From assembly GCA_017960645.1 (NCBI GenBank), contig JAGCYU010000004.1, positions 7,152 to 71,151 on the forward strand: DNA of 64,000 nucleotides, written 5' to 3'. The first letter of the stretch is position 1, and each line of letters begins with the position of its first letter. Origin of the DNA: Alphaproteobacteria bacterium (lineage in GTDB: Bacteria; Pseudomonadota; Alphaproteobacteria; CAAHEQ01; UBA3637). The notes beneath the pieces are model-generated. The model ran no database searches. It had not been told where the DNA came from and saw only the letters and a list, made by a program, of their open reading frames with translations. A program made the translations under genes and the position numbers. This document shows, in pieces, positions 8,229-53,561 of this stretch.

Positions 8229-10978
8229 GCTTCCTCCTGAAAATTGGTGTTCCATTCTTGGGAACGGGCTAAATGTTCATAATCATCGTATTCTGGTGCT
8301 TGGGAAGGAATAGGACATACCTCATAGGATGTTTGAGAATTGTTAAAAGTATGGATGAGTTCAATAAGTCCGATTCTAGCTTCTTCAATAATCTTTTTCA
8401 ATTGATCTGTTGTTTTTTGAATTGAGACAACTTTGCCGCCATCCTCTTTTCCGCTCAGCGCCCAATAGGCAAGGTCGGATATAGGATGTGGGCCTGTTTT
8501 AAAGGCATCTTGTTGTGCCAACAATGCTTCCAAAGGTAATTGAGGGGCATAACCGGCCATGACTTCTTTAACACTTGGCATGGCAGATTGGGTTTTAAAA
8601 TCAATAATGCCAGTTGAACCGTCTTTGTACAGCTGGATACAATCGGCTGTGCCAGATAAGGTAAATAGCTTGTCATCGACGGTGAGTTGAATTTCTGAAT
8701 TGATTTCGGATAAGACTTTATCAATCAAAGGAACAATTTTTTGTTGTGTTTGAATGATGAAGTTGGCCATTTTTTCAAATTTTGGCCACAGGAAAACCTT
8801 ATCGCCTTCTAATAAATCAGCTTCGGCAAATTGTTGTTTCCCTATGAGTAACAAGTCTTGAATATTGGTGCTTTTGGGGTGATTTTTGAAAAAAAGTTCT
8901 AAAATTTTATGTACCAAAGAGCCAAAAACGGCAGCTTTAACAGAATGTTCCAATGGGGTTAAGGGAATAAGCTTTAAAATATACCTTGCATATATGGCAT
9001 AGGGATTTCGACGCCATAATTCAATGCGGGTGACGGATAAACCTTGGGGACGAACCTCCAAAGGCGGTGTTGGAGCAGGACGTTCTATGGTCTTAAATTG
9101 AGATGGCATGTTAACCAATGTTGCCAAATGAGCTTGATGTTCCACAAACGGGATATTGTTAATTTCGGCTACAGCTTTTAATCTTTCTATAAATCGAGAT
9201 GGAATAGAGGGGGTGCCATTTACTTTTTGAGCGCGTGTTAAATATACTTCTGAAGCACATAGACAATGTAAAAAGTCCAGCGCTAATTCATCTATTTTTT
9301 GTTCCGGCAGGGGGATGCCCAATTGTTTTCTCATGCTGCAATTCAGCCATGGTCCTGCCTCAGGTATTGGAGGAAAGGTGCCTTCATTTAAACCGCCTAT
9401 AATACATACATCCGGGTGGTATAATCTGGCCTCAATAGGGCCCAATATGTCCAATCTTTGTGTCATCCCGTATTTTGGTCGAACATTTGTTTGTTGCATA
9501 AATGTATTAAGTAATTGAGGGTAAGTGGTGGGTTCAATTTCGCCGATTATTTCTGCATAAGTTGACAATTCCGTGAATAAATCAAGGGCTGTTTGACCAA
9601 TATCTGTTCCCCATAAACGTTCTTTTCCGCTTCGATCATGACTGGTTGCTAAGCTTTCTGCGGCTTTTAAATGTTCTGTTAAAAAGGTTTTGAATGGGAC
9701 AAGAGTATTGTTTTCAAACAAAGATAAAAATGGAGTCAAATCTGTTTTTAGGTCAAAGCTCCACTTGCTTTTCTTTTTTCGAGCTTCATATTCTGCTTGT
9801 TTGACTTTTTGTCTAAAAATGGTTGGGTTTTGACCATCTGCAGCAAGCGGCGAATAAAGTAATGCCACAGCATGAGGGCCATCGGGATGCAGGGCAAAAT
9901 CCGTTAATAATTGTAAAAAAATACCAACGGAAGTATGTACCAAAGGGGTTCCCGCTGAATCATCCAATAAAATATTCCAACGTTGCATTTGGGATATCAC
10001 TTGTCTGGATAAATTTCTGTCTGTTGTGACCAAAGCTGCTGTTTTATTTGGCGTTTCCAATACTTGGCGTAATAATAATGCAATGGTCAAAGCTTCATTT
10101 TGAGCGGTGTCTGCAACAATTAAATGCACGTGTTCCAAAGCGTCTGACTTAAAAATGTTTGGTTGCCAAGTAACGTGTGCTAAAGCTTGAACGGCTATTG
10201 TTTCTTGTTTTGTTTGATAGTCATTTAATAAAACAGGATTTGGTACTTTCAATTTTTCGCATAGTGTTCGTACGGATTGTCCCAAAGATAAAGGAGCGTT
10301 TTCTTGAACGAGTCCATCTAAAATAATCCAATTTTTTTTATCTTGGCTCGCAGTTATTAAAAGCTCTTGTAAAGCTGGAAATGCCCCGTCAAGGCCAGCT
10401 AAGACAACAGGGGATTGTATGTCGGACAGGCGCTTTGTAAAGGCACGAATTAAACGAACCTTGCGGTCCGCAGGGTCTATTTGATTCCTTTCGGCTAAAA
10501 TTTTTGGCCAATGTAAGTTGATAATATTCAAAAACTGAATTGTTTCTTGCCAATGGGCCGCAAAACGTTCAATAGGAACTAATTTTTCTAATTCTGCAAG
10601 TTGTAAATCAAATTGATAAGATAAGTCCAATAACTCTGTTAAACTTTCGGCTAATTGTACAGCTTTATCAAACGTCAAAATATTGGGTTTCGCTTGGCAT
10701 AGCTTGGCCAGTAATAAAATGCGCTCCATAGAATCTATCGCCGGAGGAATTTCCGGATTTAAAGCTTCCAGTTCGTATAAGGGAATGAGCTGAGGTAATA
10801 ATAAAGCTTCATCATGTTTTTGGGGCATAAAACTTTCTTTTATGATTTTTGCAGCCCGTTTTGTGGGAACCACAACTTGTACTTTTGCCAAGCCAAAAGG
10901 ATCTGCTTGATATTCCTTTAACAATCGCTTGGTTAAAGATTCTGCTAAATTATCACTAAAGGTTGTTTTAAAAATCAT
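8225..10978 (-). CDS. addB: double-strand break repair protein AddB (alphaproteobacterial type)
   Basis: 917 aa lying upstream of and coupled to addA. It has an inactivated-helicase-like N-terminus and a C-terminal PD-(D/E)xK-like region. Confidence 0.85.
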   Translation of the reverse strand: MIFKTTFSDNLAESLTKRLLKEYQADPFGLAKVQVVVPTKRAAKIIKESFMPQKHDEALLLPQLIPLYELEALNPEIPPAIDSMERILLLAKLCQAKPNILTFDKAVQLAESLTELLDLSYQFDLQLAELEKLVPIERFAAHWQETIQFLNIINLHWPKILAERNQIDPADRKVRLIRAFTKRLSDIQSPVVLAGLDGAFPALQELLITASQDKKNWIILDGLVQENAPLSLGQSVRTLCEKLKVPNPVLLNDYQTKQETIAVQALAHVTWQPNIFKSDALEHVHLIVADTAQNEALTIALLLRQVLETPNKTAALVTTDRNLSRQVISQMQRWNILLDDSAGTPLVHTSVGIFLQLLTDFALHPDGPHAVALLYSPLAADGQNPTIFRQKVKQAEYEARKKKSKWSFDLKTDLTPFLSLFENNTLVPFKTFLTEHLKAAESLATSHDRSGKERLWGTDIGQTALDLFTELSTYAEIIGEIEPTTYPQLLNTFMQQTNVRPKYGMTQRLDILGPIEARLYHPDVCIIGGLNEGTFPPIPEAGPWLNCSMRKQLGIPLPEQKIDELALDFLHCLCASEVYLTRAQKVNGTPSIPSRFIERLKAVAEINNIPFVEHQAHLATLVNMPSQFKTIERPAPTPPLEVRPQGLSVTRIELWRRNPYAIYARYILKLIPLTPLEHSVKAAVFGSLVHKILELFFKNHPKSTNIQDLLLIGKQQFAEADLLEGDKVFLWPKFEKMANFIIQTQQKIVPLIDKVLSEINSEIQLTVDDKLFTLSGTADCIQLYKDGSTGIIDFKTQSAMPSVKEVMAGYAPQLPLEALLAQQDAFKTGPHPISDLAYWALSGKEDGGKVVSIQKTTDQLKKIIEEARIGLIELIHTFNNSQTSYEVCPIPSQAPEYDDYEHLARSQEWNTNFQEEA

Positions 10979-22303: not shown

Positions 22304-22819
22304 ATGAAAAAAATTTTAATCCTATTTGTTTCGTGTTTGTGCGCTCTTAAGGCTTTCGCGGCATCTAATGCAGATGTTGAAGTGTTGGGCGTTTTTGATG
22401 ATTGGTCCGCTTTTTTATACAAAGATGAAGCGGGGCAAGTGTGTTACATGGCTACTGAACCGATAAAATCTCAAGGAAAGTATAATCGCCGAGATGATGT
22501 GTTTTTAATTGTAGCGCACCGTCCAACAGAGCAATCTTTTGATGTTGTGAGTATTAATGCGGGTTATACTTATAGGAAAGGCAGTAAGCCTTATTTAACT
22601 ATTGATAATAATAAACCTATCACATTGGCCGTTTTTAATGACACAGCTTGGGCAAAGGATGATGCAACAGATGCTAAATTGGTTGCCAATATGAAAAAGG
22701 GAACTCGGGCTGTTTTAAAAGGAACTTCTGCTCGGGGAACAGCAACAACTGATACATTTTCTCTTAAAGGCTTTGGTAAGGCTTATCAAGCAATTAATAA
22801 AGCATGCGGCCGCGAATGA
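22304..22819 (+). CDS. invasion-associated locus B (IalB) family secreted protein
   Basis: Signal peptide followed by an IalB-like sequence (WSAFLYKDEAGQVCYMATEP). Confidence 0.7.
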   Translation: MKKILILFVSCLCALKAFAASNADVEVLGVFDDWSAFLYKDEAGQVCYMATEPIKSQGKYNRRDDVFLIVAHRPTEQSFDVVSINAGYTYRKGSKPYLTIDNNKPITLAVFNDTAWAKDDATDAKLVANMKKGTRAVLKGTSARGTATTDTFSLKGFGKAYQAINKACGRE

Positions 22820-23883
22820 AAAAAGAATTAATTGGTTTGGATTTAAATGAATTAAAGACCGAACTGGAGAGTATCGGAGAAAAGCCTTTTCGCGCAAAAC
22901 AATTATGGCAATGGATGTATAATAAAGGAGAGACCGATTTTGATAAAATGTCCAGTTTGTCAAAAGAGTTTCGCTCTCTTTTAAAAGAAAAATATACGGT
23001 TTCACATCCAAAAATAATAGCAGAACAAAAATCCAAAGACGGAACGCGCAAGTGGTTGATGGAGTTTTTGGATGGGGCGCGCGTGGAGTGTGTTTATATT
23101 CCGGAAGATGATAGGGGCGCTGTTTGTATATCAACCCAGGTTGGCTGTGCTCAAGGATGCAAGTTTTGTCATACAGGAACACAAAAAATGCTCAGAAATT
23201 TGACCGTCGCTGAAATTGTTGGACAGGTGATGGCCGCACGAGATGCCTATGGGGAATGGCCAACAAAAACAGATGAAAATCGTATGCTATCCAATGTTGT
23301 CTTTATGGGTATGGGCGAACCATTGGCTAACTTTGATAATTTGAAAAAGGCTTTGTTGATTTTAAACGATGGGGATGGTATGGCTATCTCAAAGCGTAAG
23401 ATTACAGTATCTACATGCGGGCTGGCTAATAAAATACCAGAATTGGCCGATTTAGGGGTTAAATTGGCAATTAGTTTGCATGCTCCTAATAATCAGATAC
23501 GTAATCAAATTATGCCCATCAATAAAGCTTTCCCGTTGGAAAAGTTGATAAAAGCATGCAAAGAATATCAAGCAAAATGTGAACGTCGCTCGTTTATTAC
23601 AATGGAATATGTGATGTTAAAAGGTGTGAATGATTCTATTCAATGTGCGGAAGAATTGACAAAACTAGTACAGGAATTGGAAGTTAAATTCAATTTGATA
23701 CCTTTTCATCCATGGAAAAATTGCCCATTTGAACCGTCAAGCCCAGCAACTATCGCAAAGTTTGCAAAATTTTTAGAGTCTAAATGGTTTGCTGCGCCGA
23801 TTCGCAGAACCCGTGGGGAAGATATCATGGCAGCTTGTGGCCAATTAAAGACAGCAAAAGAGTCTTTGAGTTTGGAGGAGACT
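22816..23883 (+). CDS. rlmN: 23S rRNA/tRNA adenine-C2 methyltransferase RlmN (radical SAM); no stop codon before the next gene
   Basis: RlmN N-terminus and the radical-SAM motif CxxxCxxC (GCAQGCKFCHTG) are present. Homology ends at about ...CGQLKTAKESL. The frame continues without a stop into a prepilin-like ORF. Confidence 0.8.
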
Positions 23884-24693
23884 ATGGAAAATAAAAATGA
23901 ATCTGGCAGATCTATGGTTGAGTTAATAGGTATTTTATGTCTCATGGGATTGTTGACAATAGGTGGCATTCGTTTTTATAGATATGGTATGGATGAGACT
24001 ATTGCTCAAAATACTTATGAAGAAGTTCAGCAACGGGCGGTGACCAGTTTGGAACGTTTTAACAATCGACGTTATCAGTTTGATTCCCGTCCTGTATCTA
24101 ATATAACACCTCATGGTTATAATATTACTGTGAGACAGCATTCTTCTAACCGTGAATATATCGTTGTTTCTGTGACAGGCGTTTCAGATGGTGTTTGTCA
24201 ACATATTCTTAGGAAAATTGGCAATACTCAAAGTGGGTTTTTGCCTGTGGCAGGCCTTAGTCTCAACAGTTCTAATTATCAGACAAATGAGTTATCAGAA
24301 TCACTTTGTCCTCAAAGTGGTAATGTTAATATGACTTTTTTCTTTCATCGTTCCAAAAAAGCGGATAGAGATAGTTCAGATATTTTAAGTACATGCTCTT
24401 CAACAAGTGATTGCTTGCAACGCGTAGGGGATGCAAATGCTTGTTTGAAATGCGATACAACGAATCGTTTATGTGTTTTGGATGACACAAAATGCAGTTC
24501 AGGACAAGTTTGTCATCAACTTGCTGGGGCTTTATATCCTAAATGTTATCAAGTGGCTGATAATGCTAGCGAAGATCAGCCCTGCGGCTTAGGAGAATGT
24601 TGGACAGTTGTTGATGGTATTTGTGTTCCAGATAGTAGTTTATGTTTAGATGCTGAAAGCACTTGTGGAAGTGACGGTTTTTGTACTAACTAA
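23884..24693 (+). CDS. prepilin-like (class III signal) Cys-rich secreted protein
   Basis: An internal ATG is preceded by GGAGGAG. The leader is MENKNESG, and the mature N-terminus RSMVELIGILCLMGLLTIGG has Glu at +5. The C-terminal ~90 aa contain about 19 Cys. Confidence 0.55.
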   Translation: MENKNESGRSMVELIGILCLMGLLTIGGIRFYRYGMDETIAQNTYEEVQQRAVTSLERFNNRRYQFDSRPVSNITPHGYNITVRQHSSNREYIVVSVTGVSDGVCQHILRKIGNTQSGFLPVAGLSLNSSNYQTNELSESLCPQSGNVNMTFFFHRSKKADRDSSDILSTCSSTSDCLQRVGDANACLKCDTTNRLCVLDDTKCSSGQVCHQLAGALYPKCYQVADNASEDQPCGLGECWTVVDGICVPDSSLCLDAESTCGSDGFCTN

Positions 24694-24706
24694 AAAAGGA
24701 GAAAAT

Positions 24707-25444
24707 ATGTTGGATTTAACAGGAAAAACGGCTTTAATTACGGGGGCAACTGGTGGCATAGGGCGTGCTATTGCCAAAACTTTACATGCTCAAGGGACAA
24801 CCCTTGCTTTAACAGATATGAATCTGGACACCTTGAATAAATTCGCTTCTGAATTAAAAGATCGCGTGTTTATTTATGCAGCTAATTTATCGGATGGACA
24901 AAGTATAGCTAATTTGGTTTCAATGGCTGAAAAAGACTTAGGACATATTGATATATTAGTTAATAATGCAGGTATTACAAAGGATACATTATCTATGCGT
25001 ATGAGTGATGAACAATGGGATGATGTATTACGTATCAATTTGACAGCAGGTTTTAAATTGGCGCGTTCTGTGATTCCATCAATGATGAAAAATCGTTGGG
25101 GACGGATTATTTCTATGGCCTCTATTGTTGGTGTGATTGGTAATGCAGGGCAGGCAAACTATGCTGCCAGTAAGGCTGGTTTAATTGCTATGAGTAAATC
25201 TATGGCGGCGGAATTAGCCGGTCGCAATATTACCGTGAACTGTATTGCCCCTGGTTTTATTGCAACACCTATGACAGCTAATTTGCCAGAAGATGTTAAA
25301 AAAGCTATGATGGATCGTATTCCTGCAAAACGTATGGGTGAACCTCAGGATATAGCGAATTTAGTCGCATTTTTGGCCAGTGAAGAGGCTGCATATATTA
25401 CAGGCCAAACAGTAAATATTAATGGTGGAATGTTAATGTTATAA
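24707..25444 (+). CDS. fabG: 3-oxoacyl-ACP reductase
   Basis: [12 protein letters not shown] Rossmann fold with the SDR catalytic motifs. An AGGAG RBS precedes the start. Confidence 0.9.
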
Positions 25445-49871: not shown

Positions 49872-51578
49872 ATGGTTTATTTAACAATTTTATTAACAAT
49901 TTTAATAAGTATTTTGATTTACACGTTTGATCCGGCTCCAAACAGGTCTGAACACGATATAACCGGCGCTGAAGCGTATGTTTTAGGATTTATCAACCAA
50001 CACCAAGCCGCCCGCGACTTTATGAAGCATTGGTTAGGGCATAGTAAGGCTAATGACGGCGCACATGGTGTTGTTGGCGGGAAAGGCGTTATATTATCTG
50101 GGGATACAGATCCTGGAACAGAACAAGGGCGTATGGAAAGTTTTATGCTCAAGGGATTAACCTCAAATATACACACTTATAATGGGAGTGGATTTGCAAC
50201 TGGTTCAGATAACGGGACCTTTAAATCTGCTTATGTGTGTTTGGATGAGCATTTAGAAAACCTGGTTGCTGAAACAAATTGCCGAAATCGTTATGTTGTG
50301 ACGTATGCAAAAGATAAACCGGATTGGTGGACAGATCCAAAAGAGCAGGAAAAAAAGGCCACAAAAGGTCAACGGTGGCGGCGTGCCATTGCTCAACGAA
50401 CTCATGGATCGTATGGGTGCGGTGTATTAACTATGGCCGACGGGACAGGAAGCAAAAATTGGTGTTATAAAACCGGTAAGAAGAACACAATCAAACCCAA
50501 AGAGAGTTCATGTGCCACGGGCGAACGTGAGGGGAAATATTGCATTGACAATGGCGAAGGATGTCAGACTTTGCTGCCCTCTGGAATTCAAGTATTCTTG
50601 GAAAATGAAATAAATAATGATTTAAGTGATAGACTGGTGTGTATCAGCACGGTAAAAAATCCCTATGTTACAGAAGGATTAATGTTCCAATATGATTCCA
50701 TCGATAGTGCGGGAAATGGAGCGCCTGCCGCAAATGGGACTAATCTTACGACGCATTCCTCTCCCTTTACTTGGGCGAATTCGGAAGTGGGAACCCCTGT
50801 CAATTGGAATGCATCCGGCTCTCCAACATGGGAAGATAGCTCAAAAAGTTCCCCTATGATTCCACATAACAACGGACATGCCTTTAATTTTCAATTGGGA
50901 AATAATGATTCTACATTTACTTTGACTATAGTAGCAAAGGTTCCAAATAAAACTGCCCAGACAATCATAGGTCCTGTTACCCCATCAGGACTAAATATTC
51001 CTGATTTAACCGTTGATGATGGCGCTGGTAATAAGAAAAAAGCAAATATTGGGATGTATTATATGAATGATTGTTCAATAGCAAGTGAAGGCGCGGTTAC
51101 TGGGGATTGTTTTTTGCTCTTGACCAGAAAAGATGCCAGCCATGCGGATACAATTGATGGAAACATCATTAGCTATGATAATAATAATAATGGAATAATA
51201 TCGTGGACAATTGTCAAGCGTCCTGATCTTGATGGAATTTCAACGCTTTATTGGTATAACGGAGCAGAGCCGGTGTGTGATAGTGGTAGTGAAGTAGTAA
51301 AACACCCCTATATAGATGGAGGGGGAACGCGAAACAATATGACTTTAGGGGGGGGATCTGGCGGTAGTGCAGATGATACTGTCAGAATTTATGCCATACG
51401 GTATTACAATCGCCCCTTGACAAGGCGGGAAATCAACCGTAACTTCCGTGCAGATGGGGAACGATATGGCGTCGGCAGTTGGACGGGGAGCTGTACCAAC
51501 AAATGCGAGGTAGATTCGGATTGTTTGAATACATATCAAAGTTGCAAAAGTGGCGAATGCAAAATAAAGGATGAATAA
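49872..51578 (+). CDS. membrane-anchored surface protein with LamG-like (concanavalin-type) domain and Cys-rich C-terminal tail
   Basis: N-terminal hydrophobic anchor. DTVRIYAIRYYNRPLTRREINRNF matches the LamG hallmark strand (RIYNRALSAxEI). The tail reads CTNKCEVDSDCLNTYQSCKSGEC. Confidence 0.6.
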   Translation: MVYLTILLTILISILIYTFDPAPNRSEHDITGAEAYVLGFINQHQAARDFMKHWLGHSKANDGAHGVVGGKGVILSGDTDPGTEQGRMESFMLKGLTSNIHTYNGSGFATGSDNGTFKSAYVCLDEHLENLVAETNCRNRYVVTYAKDKPDWWTDPKEQEKKATKGQRWRRAIAQRTHGSYGCGVLTMADGTGSKNWCYKTGKKNTIKPKESSCATGEREGKYCIDNGEGCQTLLPSGIQVFLENEINNDLSDRLVCISTVKNPYVTEGLMFQYDSIDSAGNGAPAANGTNLTTHSSPFTWANSEVGTPVNWNASGSPTWEDSSKSSPMIPHNNGHAFNFQLGNNDSTFTLTIVAKVPNKTAQTIIGPVTPSGLNIPDLTVDDGAGNKKKANIGMYYMNDCSIASEGAVTGDCFLLLTRKDASHADTIDGNIISYDNNNNGIISWTIVKRPDLDGISTLYWYNGAEPVCDSGSEVVKHPYIDGGGTRNNMTLGGGSGGSADDTVRIYAIRYYNRPLTRREINRNFRADGERYGVGSWTGSCTNKCEVDSDCLNTYQSCKSGECKIKDE

Positions 51579-51596: not shown

Positions 51597-53561
51597 ATGA
51601 AATACGATTTAAAAACAGAACGCAAAGATGAATCCGGCGCAATTATGTTGGAAATTATTGCCGTTTTGGCTTTAATGGGTGTTATGGGGGCAATGTTGTT
51701 CCGCCAGATCAATCACCGTAACCAAGAATTGCACAATATTCAAATGGCATCTGAAGCTCGTATTATGAAGGAAGCTTTTTCTGCATGGATTCAAGCCAAC
51801 TTGGCCACTTTACGTAGAGATTGCAGAGCTGAATCTACAATCGATGTTATACCGTGTTCCATAAATTATTCTGCTCAATATGGGTCTACTGCAATCGGAC
51901 AAGCAATTGTTAATGATGGTTTTTTACCGGATGGTTATGATGGAAGTGGAGTCTATGCAGATAGCATAGCTTATGACTATAATCTCAGTTTGTTTTCTTA
52001 CTGGCGCGGAAACGCCACAAGCGGTGCCCCAGCATATTATGGTGTTGTCATTCCAAACCCGAATATTTTGCCAGATGGCGGGGGGGAAACAACGACATGG
52101 AACTTTAAGCGCGCAGCACGTGTTGCCATGTTAATCGGTGGCGATGGGGGTGTGTATGGCCCTGATATTACGGGGGACTCTTTATCTGGAAGTGCCGGCA
52201 GCTGGCAGTTAGACACAAAAACTGGTAGCACTTTACTTTTTATGACATCTGATCAAGCCCAATTGCCTATCTATGGTGCGGTGACGGGGTTTGATGTGTA
52301 TCAACCCGAAGTAGAAGTTGAAGATGTTAAAGTGAATATTCCAAAAGACTTTGGAATGGTGGTCAGGGATCTTGGATCCTATGGAGCATTTGCCGTGGGA
52401 ATGGGTGATGCAAATTGTTATGATAGTCGTATTCAGCATCATACAGCATTAGGAGATGGCACCATTAACCCTGATACTGTTAAAATACCAAAAAATGATG
52501 GGTCTTGTCAGGCTGTGTTGTGGGTGGATGGCGCAGATTCTAAAGTTTATACCAGTAAAGATATTGAGGTTGGCTATGATCCCGTGACTGGGGCTTCATC
52601 CGTCAGTATTAAAGGCGAAAGTGATAAAGCGGGAAAAGTTATCGTGTATGATGATCAAGGTCGTGCCAATATTATCTTAGAGGGCAAAACAGATGCAAGT
52701 ACAAGCACCGCCGCCAATACTTTAACCTTTAAGGATGGTAAGATTTTAACAAATAAGACCACGGGAAATGTAGGGGCAACAGGAAGCCAAGAGCAATATC
52801 AATACCAACTGGATCCTGCTAATACATCCGTTGTGTATGATATTCGTTTGGGTGCTATGGGTGGCATGAAACTGAGTGAACTTTTGCCAGACGTGATTTT
52901 GAAAGATGTGGGACGCATTAGTTCAGGAGGAAGGGTGACTAAGCCTTCTTGTCCAAAGGGATATGTTCCCGCCATTTTAGTGATCCCAGGTCATCAAACT
53001 CCGCGAGTAGCGGAAGGAAGTGCTGCACCTCAGATATTGCTACCTAACTCTAGCGATCCTAACAGTCCTGTGATCGGATATTTACGGCCGCCACAGTTAA
53101 AAATAAAAGATTCGGAGGATCAAGAGATTGTTAATCTTGGTACTGACCCCGCTTATACTCCAATATTCGCACAAGAGCCTACTCCAAAAGAGAGTGCGGC
53201 TGTATCGGAATGGACTATTAGCGGTTCGTCTACTACTTATCTACGTTACATTGCCTATCAAACGTTTTGTGTGAAAGATGGGACAATTGGTGCAGCCAGC
53301 GGAAATGACGTTCAGAATTTGAACAGCACAACCAAAGTGGGTACTGCATCCACATCTTTAACTGCAACGGATTGTGCCACTATGGGATTTGATTTCAGTT
53401 CAGGGAAGTGTGTTGTATGGACTTTGAACCACATCAATGCTGTGGCGGATGCCGAACAAAAAGAAAAACTTTGCCGGAGTGCAGGGTACTTTTGGGATGA
53501 CAAAGAAACCGGTAGTAATAAATGTAAAACTGCAAAGCCAAGCCAGCAACAGGGTGACTAA
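51597..53561 (+). CDS. large (654 aa) prepilin-like protein with class III signal
   Basis: The leader MKYDLKTERKDESG is followed by AIMLEIIAVLALMGVMGAML with Glu at +5. The body is long, Gly/Thr-rich and extracellular-like, and the C-terminus is Cys-containing. Confidence 0.6.
   Translation: MKYDLKTERKDESGAIMLEIIAVLALMGVMGAMLFRQINHRNQELHNIQMASEARIMKEAFSAWIQANLATLRRDCRAESTIDVIPCSINYSAQYGSTAIGQAIVNDGFLPDGYDGSGVYADSIAYDYNLSLFSYWRGNATSGAPAYYGVVIPNPNILPDGGGETTTWNFKRAARVAMLIGGDGGVYGPDITGDSLSGSAGSWQLDTKTGSTLLFMTSDQAQLPIYGAVTGFDVYQPEVEVEDVKVNIPKDFGMVVRDLGSYGAFAVGMGDANCYDSRIQHHTALGDGTINPDTVKIPKNDGSCQAVLWVDGADSKVYTSKDIEVGYDPVTGASSVSIKGESDKAGKVIVYDDQGRANIILEGKTDASTSTAANTLTFKDGKILTNKTTGNVGATGSQEQYQYQLDPANTSVVYDIRLGAMGGMKLSELLPDVILKDVGRISSGGRVTKPSCPKGYVPAILVIPGHQTPRVAEGSAAPQILLPNSSDPNSPVIGYLRPPQLKIKDSEDQEIVNLGTDPAYTPIFAQEPTPKESAAVSEWTISGSSTTYLRYIAYQTFCVKDGTIGAASGNDVQNLNSTTKVGTASTSLTATDCATMGFDFSSGKCVVWTLNHINAVADAEQKEKLCRSAGYFWDDKETGSNKCKTAKPSQQQGD

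Follow-up and report, generated by a model that had tools for sequence, protein, structure and literature searches.

A putative modular type IV pilin with arginine at position +1, from a very large uncurated protein family of uncultured Alphaproteobacteria

Introduction

The class III signal of type IV pilins consists of a hydrophilic leader of 6–26 amino acids that ends in Gly or Ala, about 21 hydrophobic residues and a glutamate at position +5 (PMC4471445, PMC10191384), and this Glu5 is required for assembly, not for processing (PMC4471445). Among type IVb pilins, long leaders are classically defining, and the genes normally sit together with those for biogenesis (PMC10191384). The existence of modular pilins, and of large minor pilins of type IVb, is established, and in these proteins the additional module is presented for binding at the tip of the pilus (PMC8179133, PMC5207764, PMC6048534). 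The PilFind motif for such signals, [GAS]-[ACFGILMNPQSTVWY]4-[DE], admits only uncharged residues at +1 to +4, and Gly-x4-Glu followed by hydrophobic residues is in itself common by chance (PMC3244431). Here, we describe a pilin-like gene, called gene X (positions 23884–24693, + strand; product, protein X), in a 64,000-nucleotide stretch of contig JAGCYU010000004.1 (assembly GCA_017960645.1; 39% guanine plus cytosine) of an uncultured alphaproteobacterium. This whole stretch is referred to as the window.

Our preferred reading, to which we assign a probability of roughly 0.6, is that X is a bimodular minor pilin of a TcpA-like, unusually organised system. Profile and model comparisons show that the approximately 160 N-terminal residues of X are homologous to TcpA-type (type IVb-like) pilins, and X very likely is a type IV pilin homologue. 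We infer both its cleavage and its assembly into a filament: processing by a Peptidase_A24 enzyme (hereafter A24) seems probable, while for assembly we consider the chances even. By sequence comparison, X and its orthologues form one group in a very large family from uncultured Alphaproteobacteria. Uncurated and defined by the N-terminal module, it is hereafter called the family. The modular type IV pilin is already known as a kind. What is new is a very large family that escapes curated signatures through an obligatory Arg+1, TcpA-like subunits whose leaders are short and whose genes are scattered, an orphan peptidase that lacks the methylase, and a disulfide-rich module without structural relatives.

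Homology to TcpA-type pilins

Gene X extends from an ATG at 23884 to a TAA stop at 24691–24693 (+ strand, 269 codons), as it had been placed in a preliminary description of the locus made from the sequence alone. The hydrophobic, pilin-like N-terminus with Glu5 noted there is likewise present: the protein begins MENKNESGRSMVELIGILCLMGLLTIGG, with Gly8, Arg9 and Glu13 followed by a hydrophobic stretch, or, written with its leader, MENKNESG-RSMVELIGILCLMGLLTIGG. The predicted eight-residue leader MENKNESG (23884–23907, + strand), delimited from the family logo with the register of the TcpA profile alignment, is hydrophilic and ends in Gly8 (−1), in the manner of a class III leader, and the segment behind it, RSMVELIGILCLMGLLTIGGI, is hydrophobic with Glu13 at +5. 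Prepilin-peptidase cleavage would accordingly fall between codons 8 and 9. The predicted alpha-1 helix (residues 9–60; 23908–24063, + strand; AlphaFold2 model and family logo) opens with Arg+1, Ser+2, Met+3, Val+4 and Glu+5 and comprises a hydrophobic alpha-1N to about residue 30 and an amphipathic alpha-1C beyond it.

When the family profile was compared with all PDB sequences, 17 matches were obtained, and all 17 were type IV pilins. The best was Vibrio cholerae TcpA (E 3.8e-7), in which profile positions 11–116 aligned with residues 3–131 of the mature protein (106 profile positions), followed by CofA (E 0.0035), PilA, PilE, PpdD and geopilin. In the register of the TcpA alignment, Glu13 of X corresponds to Glu5 and Arg9 to +1, and the family Cys is aligned with Cys120 of TcpA. 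The prepilin-like reading of the preliminary description is thus upheld by membership of a very large family, by the matches of the family profile and by the TcpA fold match described below, and not by the curated pilin hidden Markov models (HMMs) through which it had proposed to check it.

X and the family have in common with TcpA the Gly-1/Glu5 spacing, a +1 residue other than Phe, a long alpha-1, a beta-sheet head and a head disulfide. However, TcpA-type pilins carry Met, Leu or Val at +1, whereas X carries Arg, and the leaders of type IVb pilins are much longer than that of X, which is nearly neutral. Unlike TcpA-type pilins, X lies outside any pilus operon and bears an extra 105-residue Cys-rich module. 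Judged as a type IVb pilin, X therefore has the homology of alpha-1 and head, by way of the family profile, and lacks the long leader and the clustered genes.

Two other classes of N-terminal signal were considered and rejected. As for a lipoprotein, the G-I-L before Cys19 is no lipobox, and most of the family, like P0004, has Ala in place of Cys19. As for a Sec (class I) signal, the helix in the model is unbroken to residue 60, and the homology to mature TcpA begins at +3. An ordinary Sec signal or transmembrane helix devoid of pilin HMM support was the outcome that the preliminary description had named as speaking against it; what was found is pilin homology through the family profile, together with a predicted TcpA-like fold.

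A very large family with arginine at +1

A profile of X and its orthologues retrieved 1603 representatives at E ≤ 1e-3, 79 of them at E ≤ 1e-10, from 1.84 billion; most of the 1603 matches cover approximately positions 3–111 of the query and some its full length. With a profile built from 26 N-terminal modules, that of X among them, at least 7063 clusters were matched. The signature of the family is ESG followed, after the predicted cleavage site, by RSM(V/I)E(M/L)LG, and its common N-terminus reads ...ESGRSMVEMLGVLAIIGVLSIGGIAGY.YAMDKY.AN..., with a conserved 'VP..VC' further on. In a logo counted over 266 members, Glu occupies position −3 in 224 and Gln in 36, Ser occupies −2 in 172 and Gly −1 in 265, Arg is found at +1 in 263, Ser at +2 and Met at +3 each in 259, and Glu at +5 in all 266, the whole stretch from −3 to +11 being near-invariant. 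The preliminary description had called Arg at +1 unusual, which holds insofar as the residue lies outside the PilFind motif; across the aligned members, however, it is the rule of the family and no peculiarity of X. The median leader of the family is 11 residues long versus 8 in X, and the leaders are nearly neutral. An equivalent of Cys105 of X is present in all 26 family sequences. The alpha-1N segment is kept across paralogues with unrelated heads, as would be expected of subunits that pack in one filament core. Members of approximately 154 residues with a major-pilin layout occur on many contigs, and longer modular members are also numerous.

Curated models come close to the family without reaching it. 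Its members score 12–18 bits against N_methyl (cut-off 21.2), 9.5–14 against TIGR02532 (16.3), 17–19.5 against PilS (22) and 16.4 against TcpA (25), and there are further sub-threshold NCBIfam matches to ComGE, PpdD, GspH and GspJ over the N-terminal helix. The family remains below the Pfam and TIGRFAM thresholds because of its obligatory Arg+1, and, scoring below threshold, it is invisible to the modular-pilin census based on IPR012902. A few members bear the source names 'type II secretion system protein' or 'pseudopilin PulG' in NCBI/JGI. The likeness to the type II pseudopilins GspG, GspH and GspJ and to Escherichia coli PpdD consists of such names and of weak helix matches; the matches lie far below the curated cut-offs and are confined to the helix, and no Gsp genes turned up in the neighbourhood of family genes. 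The motif strings of the family were found in no paper of the literature searched. Relatives of X were absent from the GTDB species representatives scanned, among which the closest named genome by MltG was that of an uncultured alphaproteobacterium (a metagenome-assembled genome; 59% identity), and a tblastn search of a plasmid collection gave no match with the family N-terminal module.

Loci of 20 kb hold one to three family genes and one 86-kb contig carries at least five, counts that indicate large paralogue expansions per genome. The 86-kb contig is Ga0310690_10000468, and clusters of two or three family genes were seen at L135, L141, L145, L154 and L161.

Predicted structure and the Cys-rich module

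The AlphaFold2 model of X, built from a five-sequence alignment (predicted local distance difference test, pLDDT, 75.8; predicted template modelling score 0.64), has a continuous helix over residues 6–60 (55 residues). The predicted globular pilin head that follows (residues 61 to about 160; 24064–24363, + strand) is delimited by the model, the conserved Cys pair and the TcpA fold match; it contains beta-strands at 80–85, 92–100, 122–132 and 148–155 and a helix at 102–114. Cys105 (codon 24196–24198) and Cys142 (codon 24307–24309, both + strand) are predicted to form the head disulfide. A low-confidence linker at 161–164 leads into a C-terminal region of short hairpins. When the model was compared with the PDB using Foldseek, the sole significant match was full-length TcpA as determined in a pilus by cryo-electron microscopy (8uhf_E; E 7.7e-4, probability 1.00, 198 columns); PilS, a type IVb pilin from S. 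typhi, came second. The model thus shows the 'lollipop' fold of pilins.

The C-terminal module (residues 165–269; 24376–24690, + strand) contains 14 Cys, at positions 171, 177, 187, 190, 197, 204, 210, 221, 234, 239, 247, 254, 261 and 267, which are predicted to form seven disulfides in small beta-hairpins; it is modelled with confidence (pLDDT 88). The Cys-dense C-terminus of the preliminary description is therefore present, although the 19 Cys stated there were an overcount: the protein holds 17, of which the non-conserved C19 lies in the hydrophobic helix, C105 and C142 belong to the middle domain, 14 fall within 171–267, and the last 95 residues contain 13. Of the spacings that it had mentioned, CxxC occurs once (C187–C190) and CxxDxxC was not found in X, the others being C-x5-C, C-x6-C and similar. 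The resemblance to EGF-like or toxin-like knots proposed there received no support, since the module has no significant sequence or fold match to EGF-like, knottin or toxin Cys-knot domains. More generally, we found for it no significant structural match, no InterPro or Pfam signature and no recognisable homologue; its best Foldseek neighbours, all non-significant, were Dkk4, MSP1-19 and Pvs25.

The order of parts in X, with a pilin module (residues 9 to about 160), a linker (161–164) and a separately folding module of 105 residues, is that of a modular pilin. The same arrangement of pilin module, short linker and C-terminal non-pilin module is found in PilB (vWA) and PilC (lectin) of Streptococcus sanguinis, although the module of X, unlike theirs, has neither a signature nor a structural match. 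As in TcpB and CofB, the N-terminal segment of X is held in common with a major pilin, which in the case of X is a putative one.

Cys density is also common to the Cys-rich repeats of Myxococcus (TIGR04201), the Dickkopf N-terminal domain and EGF-like domains, and a unit of the type C-x2-D-x-DC recurs in the family; one member, P0017, has weak matches to TIGR04201 (13.7 bits) and Dickkopf_N (E 0.51). In several long members, repeats of this type precede a WWDA-type C-terminal domain. A C-terminus of approximately 130 residues (…WWDA..AC.A… …AVCR/ALCE) is common to P0006, P0008, P0013, P0017, P0021 and P0024. A C-type-lectin-like identity of these WWDA..AC...AVCR C-termini is not claimed, Pfam having given no match for P0006, P0008 and P0017.

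Proposed processing and assembly, and the search for machinery

According to the reading that we prefer, in which X is a bimodular minor pilin, the preprotein would insert into the inner membrane with its N-terminus inside and its C-terminus outside, and a methylase-less A24 peptidase would remove MENKNESG at the cytoplasmic face and leave Arg as residue 1. N-methylation would not be expected, because the A24 enzyme has no methyltransferase domain. We speculate that Arg1, one helical turn from Glu5, might pair with it or neutralise it, or alternatively that it might contribute the positive charge on the inner side that is missing from the nearly neutral leader. In the periplasm, the head and the Cys module would fold and become oxidised, with 16 Cys forming eight disulfides. 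X would then be a low-abundance, probably tip-located, subunit in a filament of the short family pilin and, by analogy with modular pilins and TcpB/CofB, might display the Cys module for ligand binding or adhesion.

An A24 peptidase co-occurs with family genes in related organisms. At L111, a 7.1-kb metagenome contig, a Peptidase_A24 gene (positions 2–538, − strand; 42.1 bits, E 1.3e-10) accompanies a family gene, and the two are found together again on one contig at L162; at L162, L163 and L164 the A24 gene occupies 10001–10687 or the equivalent. The homologues are 226–236 residues long and consist of the peptidase domain only, with no methyltransferase domain on record, and one is named 'prepilin peptidase [Alphaproteobacteria bacterium]'. 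The gene is adjacent to yqeY-dnaG-rpoD in two contexts and in L111, with rodZ-prfA-prmC on the other side in the two full contexts, and no pilB or pilC was present near it in the contexts inspected. The preliminary description had suggested a search for a prepilin peptidase elsewhere in the genome; the A24 genes on these two contigs come from related organisms, and the window itself has none.

Several observations weigh against a bimodular minor pilin. Pfam searches of approximately 40 ORFs (open reading frames), synteny annotation and an ATPase-motif scan all agree with the earlier remark that the window holds no PilD, PilB, PilC or PilQ gene, and they revealed no other pilus or type II secretion genes, so that prepilin peptidase, assembly ATPase, platform protein and secretin are all missing there. 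No Walker A or Asp-box motif of the PilB/GspE/TadA type was detected in 1.06 Mb, made up of the window, the loci of the orthologues and of A24, and 85 loci of the family, with a view of 10 kb to either side of each gene, and no assembly genes stood beside family genes or A24 in five contexts and 85 metagenome loci. Both the A24 gene and the genes of the family have housekeeping genes as neighbours, unlike the usual clusters of type IVb systems. The leader of X is short for a type IVb pilin, and its Arg at +1 fails the PilFind motif. PF07963 (N_methyl) and TIGR02532 (IPR012902) left X unmatched even at E ≤ 1, so that the proposed check against pilin N-methylation families came out negative. A profile of the orthologues alone retrieved just geopilin, in the same register and without significance (E 0.43). 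Finally, the role given to the Cys module is drawn entirely from analogy.

The failure of the curated models and the charged +1 could also be accounted for if X were an ordinary bitopic inner-membrane protein with an uncleaved signal-anchor, in which the Gly...Glu pattern no longer has anything to do with prepilin processing and Arg9 serves the positive-inside rule. Pfam and NCBIfam searches of X returned no pilin or Cys-domain family and only chance-level hits to Ogg-HhH and a zinc finger, the curated TcpA and PilS models do not reach it, Arg might act as a topological determinant next to a nearly neutral leader, and the chance frequency of Gly-x4-Glu noted above would suit such a protein. 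We nonetheless regard this explanation as quite improbable, since the homology to TcpA reaches into the head over the 106 profile positions, including the conserved Cys, the top fold match is TcpA, the near-invariance of −3 to +11 far exceeds what a generic anchor needs, and the A24 peptidase lies on two contigs with family genes.

The want of linked assembly genes favours a further explanation, namely that the class III signal and the orphan A24 serve only to anchor or display diverse extracytoplasmic domains at the inner membrane, in the periplasm or on a short pseudopilus, with no polymerisation. This would liken X to the archaeal sugar-binding proteins that carry class III signals and to the pseudopilins of type II secretion, and in archaea class III signals are documented in roles other than pili (PMC3047682). 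The roughly 90 family and A24 loci free of an assembly ATPase motif are consistent with it, as are the single placement of family genes among housekeeping genes, the translational coupling of X to rlmN and fabG, the solitary position of A24 between conserved rpoD-dnaG-yqeY and rodZ-prfA-prmC, and the large number of paralogues in each genome, whose C-terminal parts differ greatly. However, the first 25 or so mature residues are extremely conserved over thousands of paralogues, which suits a packing interface better; the abundant members of about 154 residues have the layout of typical major pilins; the invariant Glu5 is a residue of assembly rather than of processing (PMC4471445); and, as the view extended 10 kb to either side of each gene, the machinery may sit elsewhere in the genomes. 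On balance, display without polymerisation appears somewhat unlikely to us.

A broader proposal is that the family and the stand-alone A24 constitute a distinct branch of type IV filaments in uncultured, probably host-associated, Alphaproteobacteria, with Arg obligatory as the first mature residue, dozens of paralogues that are scattered and carry diverse modules, and either a highly divergent assembly machinery or no classical one. This proposal is decidedly tentative, and we hold it to be unlikely; it would imply a new filament type or a filament-independent surface display built on TcpA-like subunits.

Implications

The pilin signature forbids a charged +1, and a family of at least 7,000 clusters breaks this rule almost without exception. 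By its stated motif, PilFind would reject the family, and censuses of pilins and modular pilins that rely on signatures would accordingly miss it. Should the members be processed and assembled, an N-terminal Arg can be tolerated by prepilin peptidases and in filament cores, a point relevant to the debated contact between the N-terminus and Glu5; a group of uncultured Alphaproteobacteria would then possess a large repertoire of pilus-displayed binding modules, and a new disulfide-rich domain would await characterisation. Should they not be assembled, they would provide a bacterial case of class III signals outside filaments. For annotation, the profile can name thousands of proteins that are now annotated as 'hypothetical'.

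Conservation and the rlmN–X–fabG locus

A single-sequence search of 5.8 billion proteins returned four homologues of X (268–272 residues, 58–68% identity) and no others, and a profile search added a fifth, more distant orthologue-like protein (P0005). These five are 258–272 residues long and share the start Met of X, and in all five the alignment preserves the class III signal, C105, C142 and the 14 Cys of the module. Pairwise ratios of nonsynonymous to synonymous substitutions (dN/dS) are 0.08–0.2, at saturated dS. The alignment and these ratios together mark X as a real, conserved gene under purifying selection. The order rlmN-X-fabG recurs in six lineages (the window and five further loci), and wherever a contig is long enough the order ialB-rlmN-X-fabG-acpP-fabF-mltG matches that of the window.

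Upstream of X lies rlmN, for a radical S-adenosylmethionine methyltransferase of 23S rRNA and tRNA (22804–23883, + strand; TIGR00048, 420 bits, residues 4–354). In the window it has no stop codon, and its frame continues into X, giving a mechanical ORF of 629 codons (22804–24693), a continuity that the preliminary description had overlooked. The two genes are in frame in the window only because of a 5-nucleotide indel at their junction (23860–23890) relative to L001. At L001 and the four other related loci (L074, L075, L076 and L166), rlmN stops in a different frame and overlaps the start of X by 4 or 14 nucleotides. Either the read-through fusion at the junction is real, or the assembly is in error there. 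Within the fused frame, a Shine-Dalgarno sequence, GGAGGAG (23874–23880, + strand), ends 3 nucleotides before the ATG of X, its GGAGG core 5 nucleotides before it, and an AAGGAG-type motif stands at the equivalent site in L001 and L074, which supports independent initiation of X.

It is conceivable from this single open frame and its junction indel that X is produced solely as the C-terminal portion of an RlmN-X fusion of 629 residues, or that the locus is decaying. We find this highly improbable, given that rlmN has a separate stop in all five related loci, that the strong Shine-Dalgarno sequence and ATG are kept (23874–23886), that X is intact with all its conserved residues, and that a single indel may be an error of assembly or sequencing; even in a fusion, RlmN would be cytoplasmic and could be severed at Gly8.

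At the other end of X, the mechanical ORF of fabG (24650–25444, + strand) overlaps X from its start at 24650. The conserved FabG start, MLDLTGK, lies at 24707, 13 nucleotides past the stop of X, and is preceded by AAGGAG; because the conserved FabG N-terminus begins only there, X and fabG do not overlap.

Other features of the window

A motif scan detected a related class-III-like signal, MKYDLKTERKDESG followed by AIMLEIIAVLALMGVMG, in a protein of 654 residues without a Pfam family (51597–53561, + strand). Its start has the ESG/x4/E layout and lacks Arg+1, and hhalign aligned it with the family profile at 91% probability over 23 signal residues only. By this likeness, it is possible that the protein is a further substrate of the same peptidase. 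Immediately upstream, at 49872–51578 (+ strand), a protein of 568 residues, also with no Pfam family, has an N-terminal hydrophobic helix that lacks the Gly...Glu motif; it ends in CEVDSDCLNTYQSCKSGEC, a C-terminus reminiscent of the first Cys unit in X and in family members. On the opposite strand, two adjacent genes at 15651–17963 are syntenic with genes for ankyrin-repeat proteins in L001 (Pfam Ank), a synteny that hints at a host-associated lifestyle.

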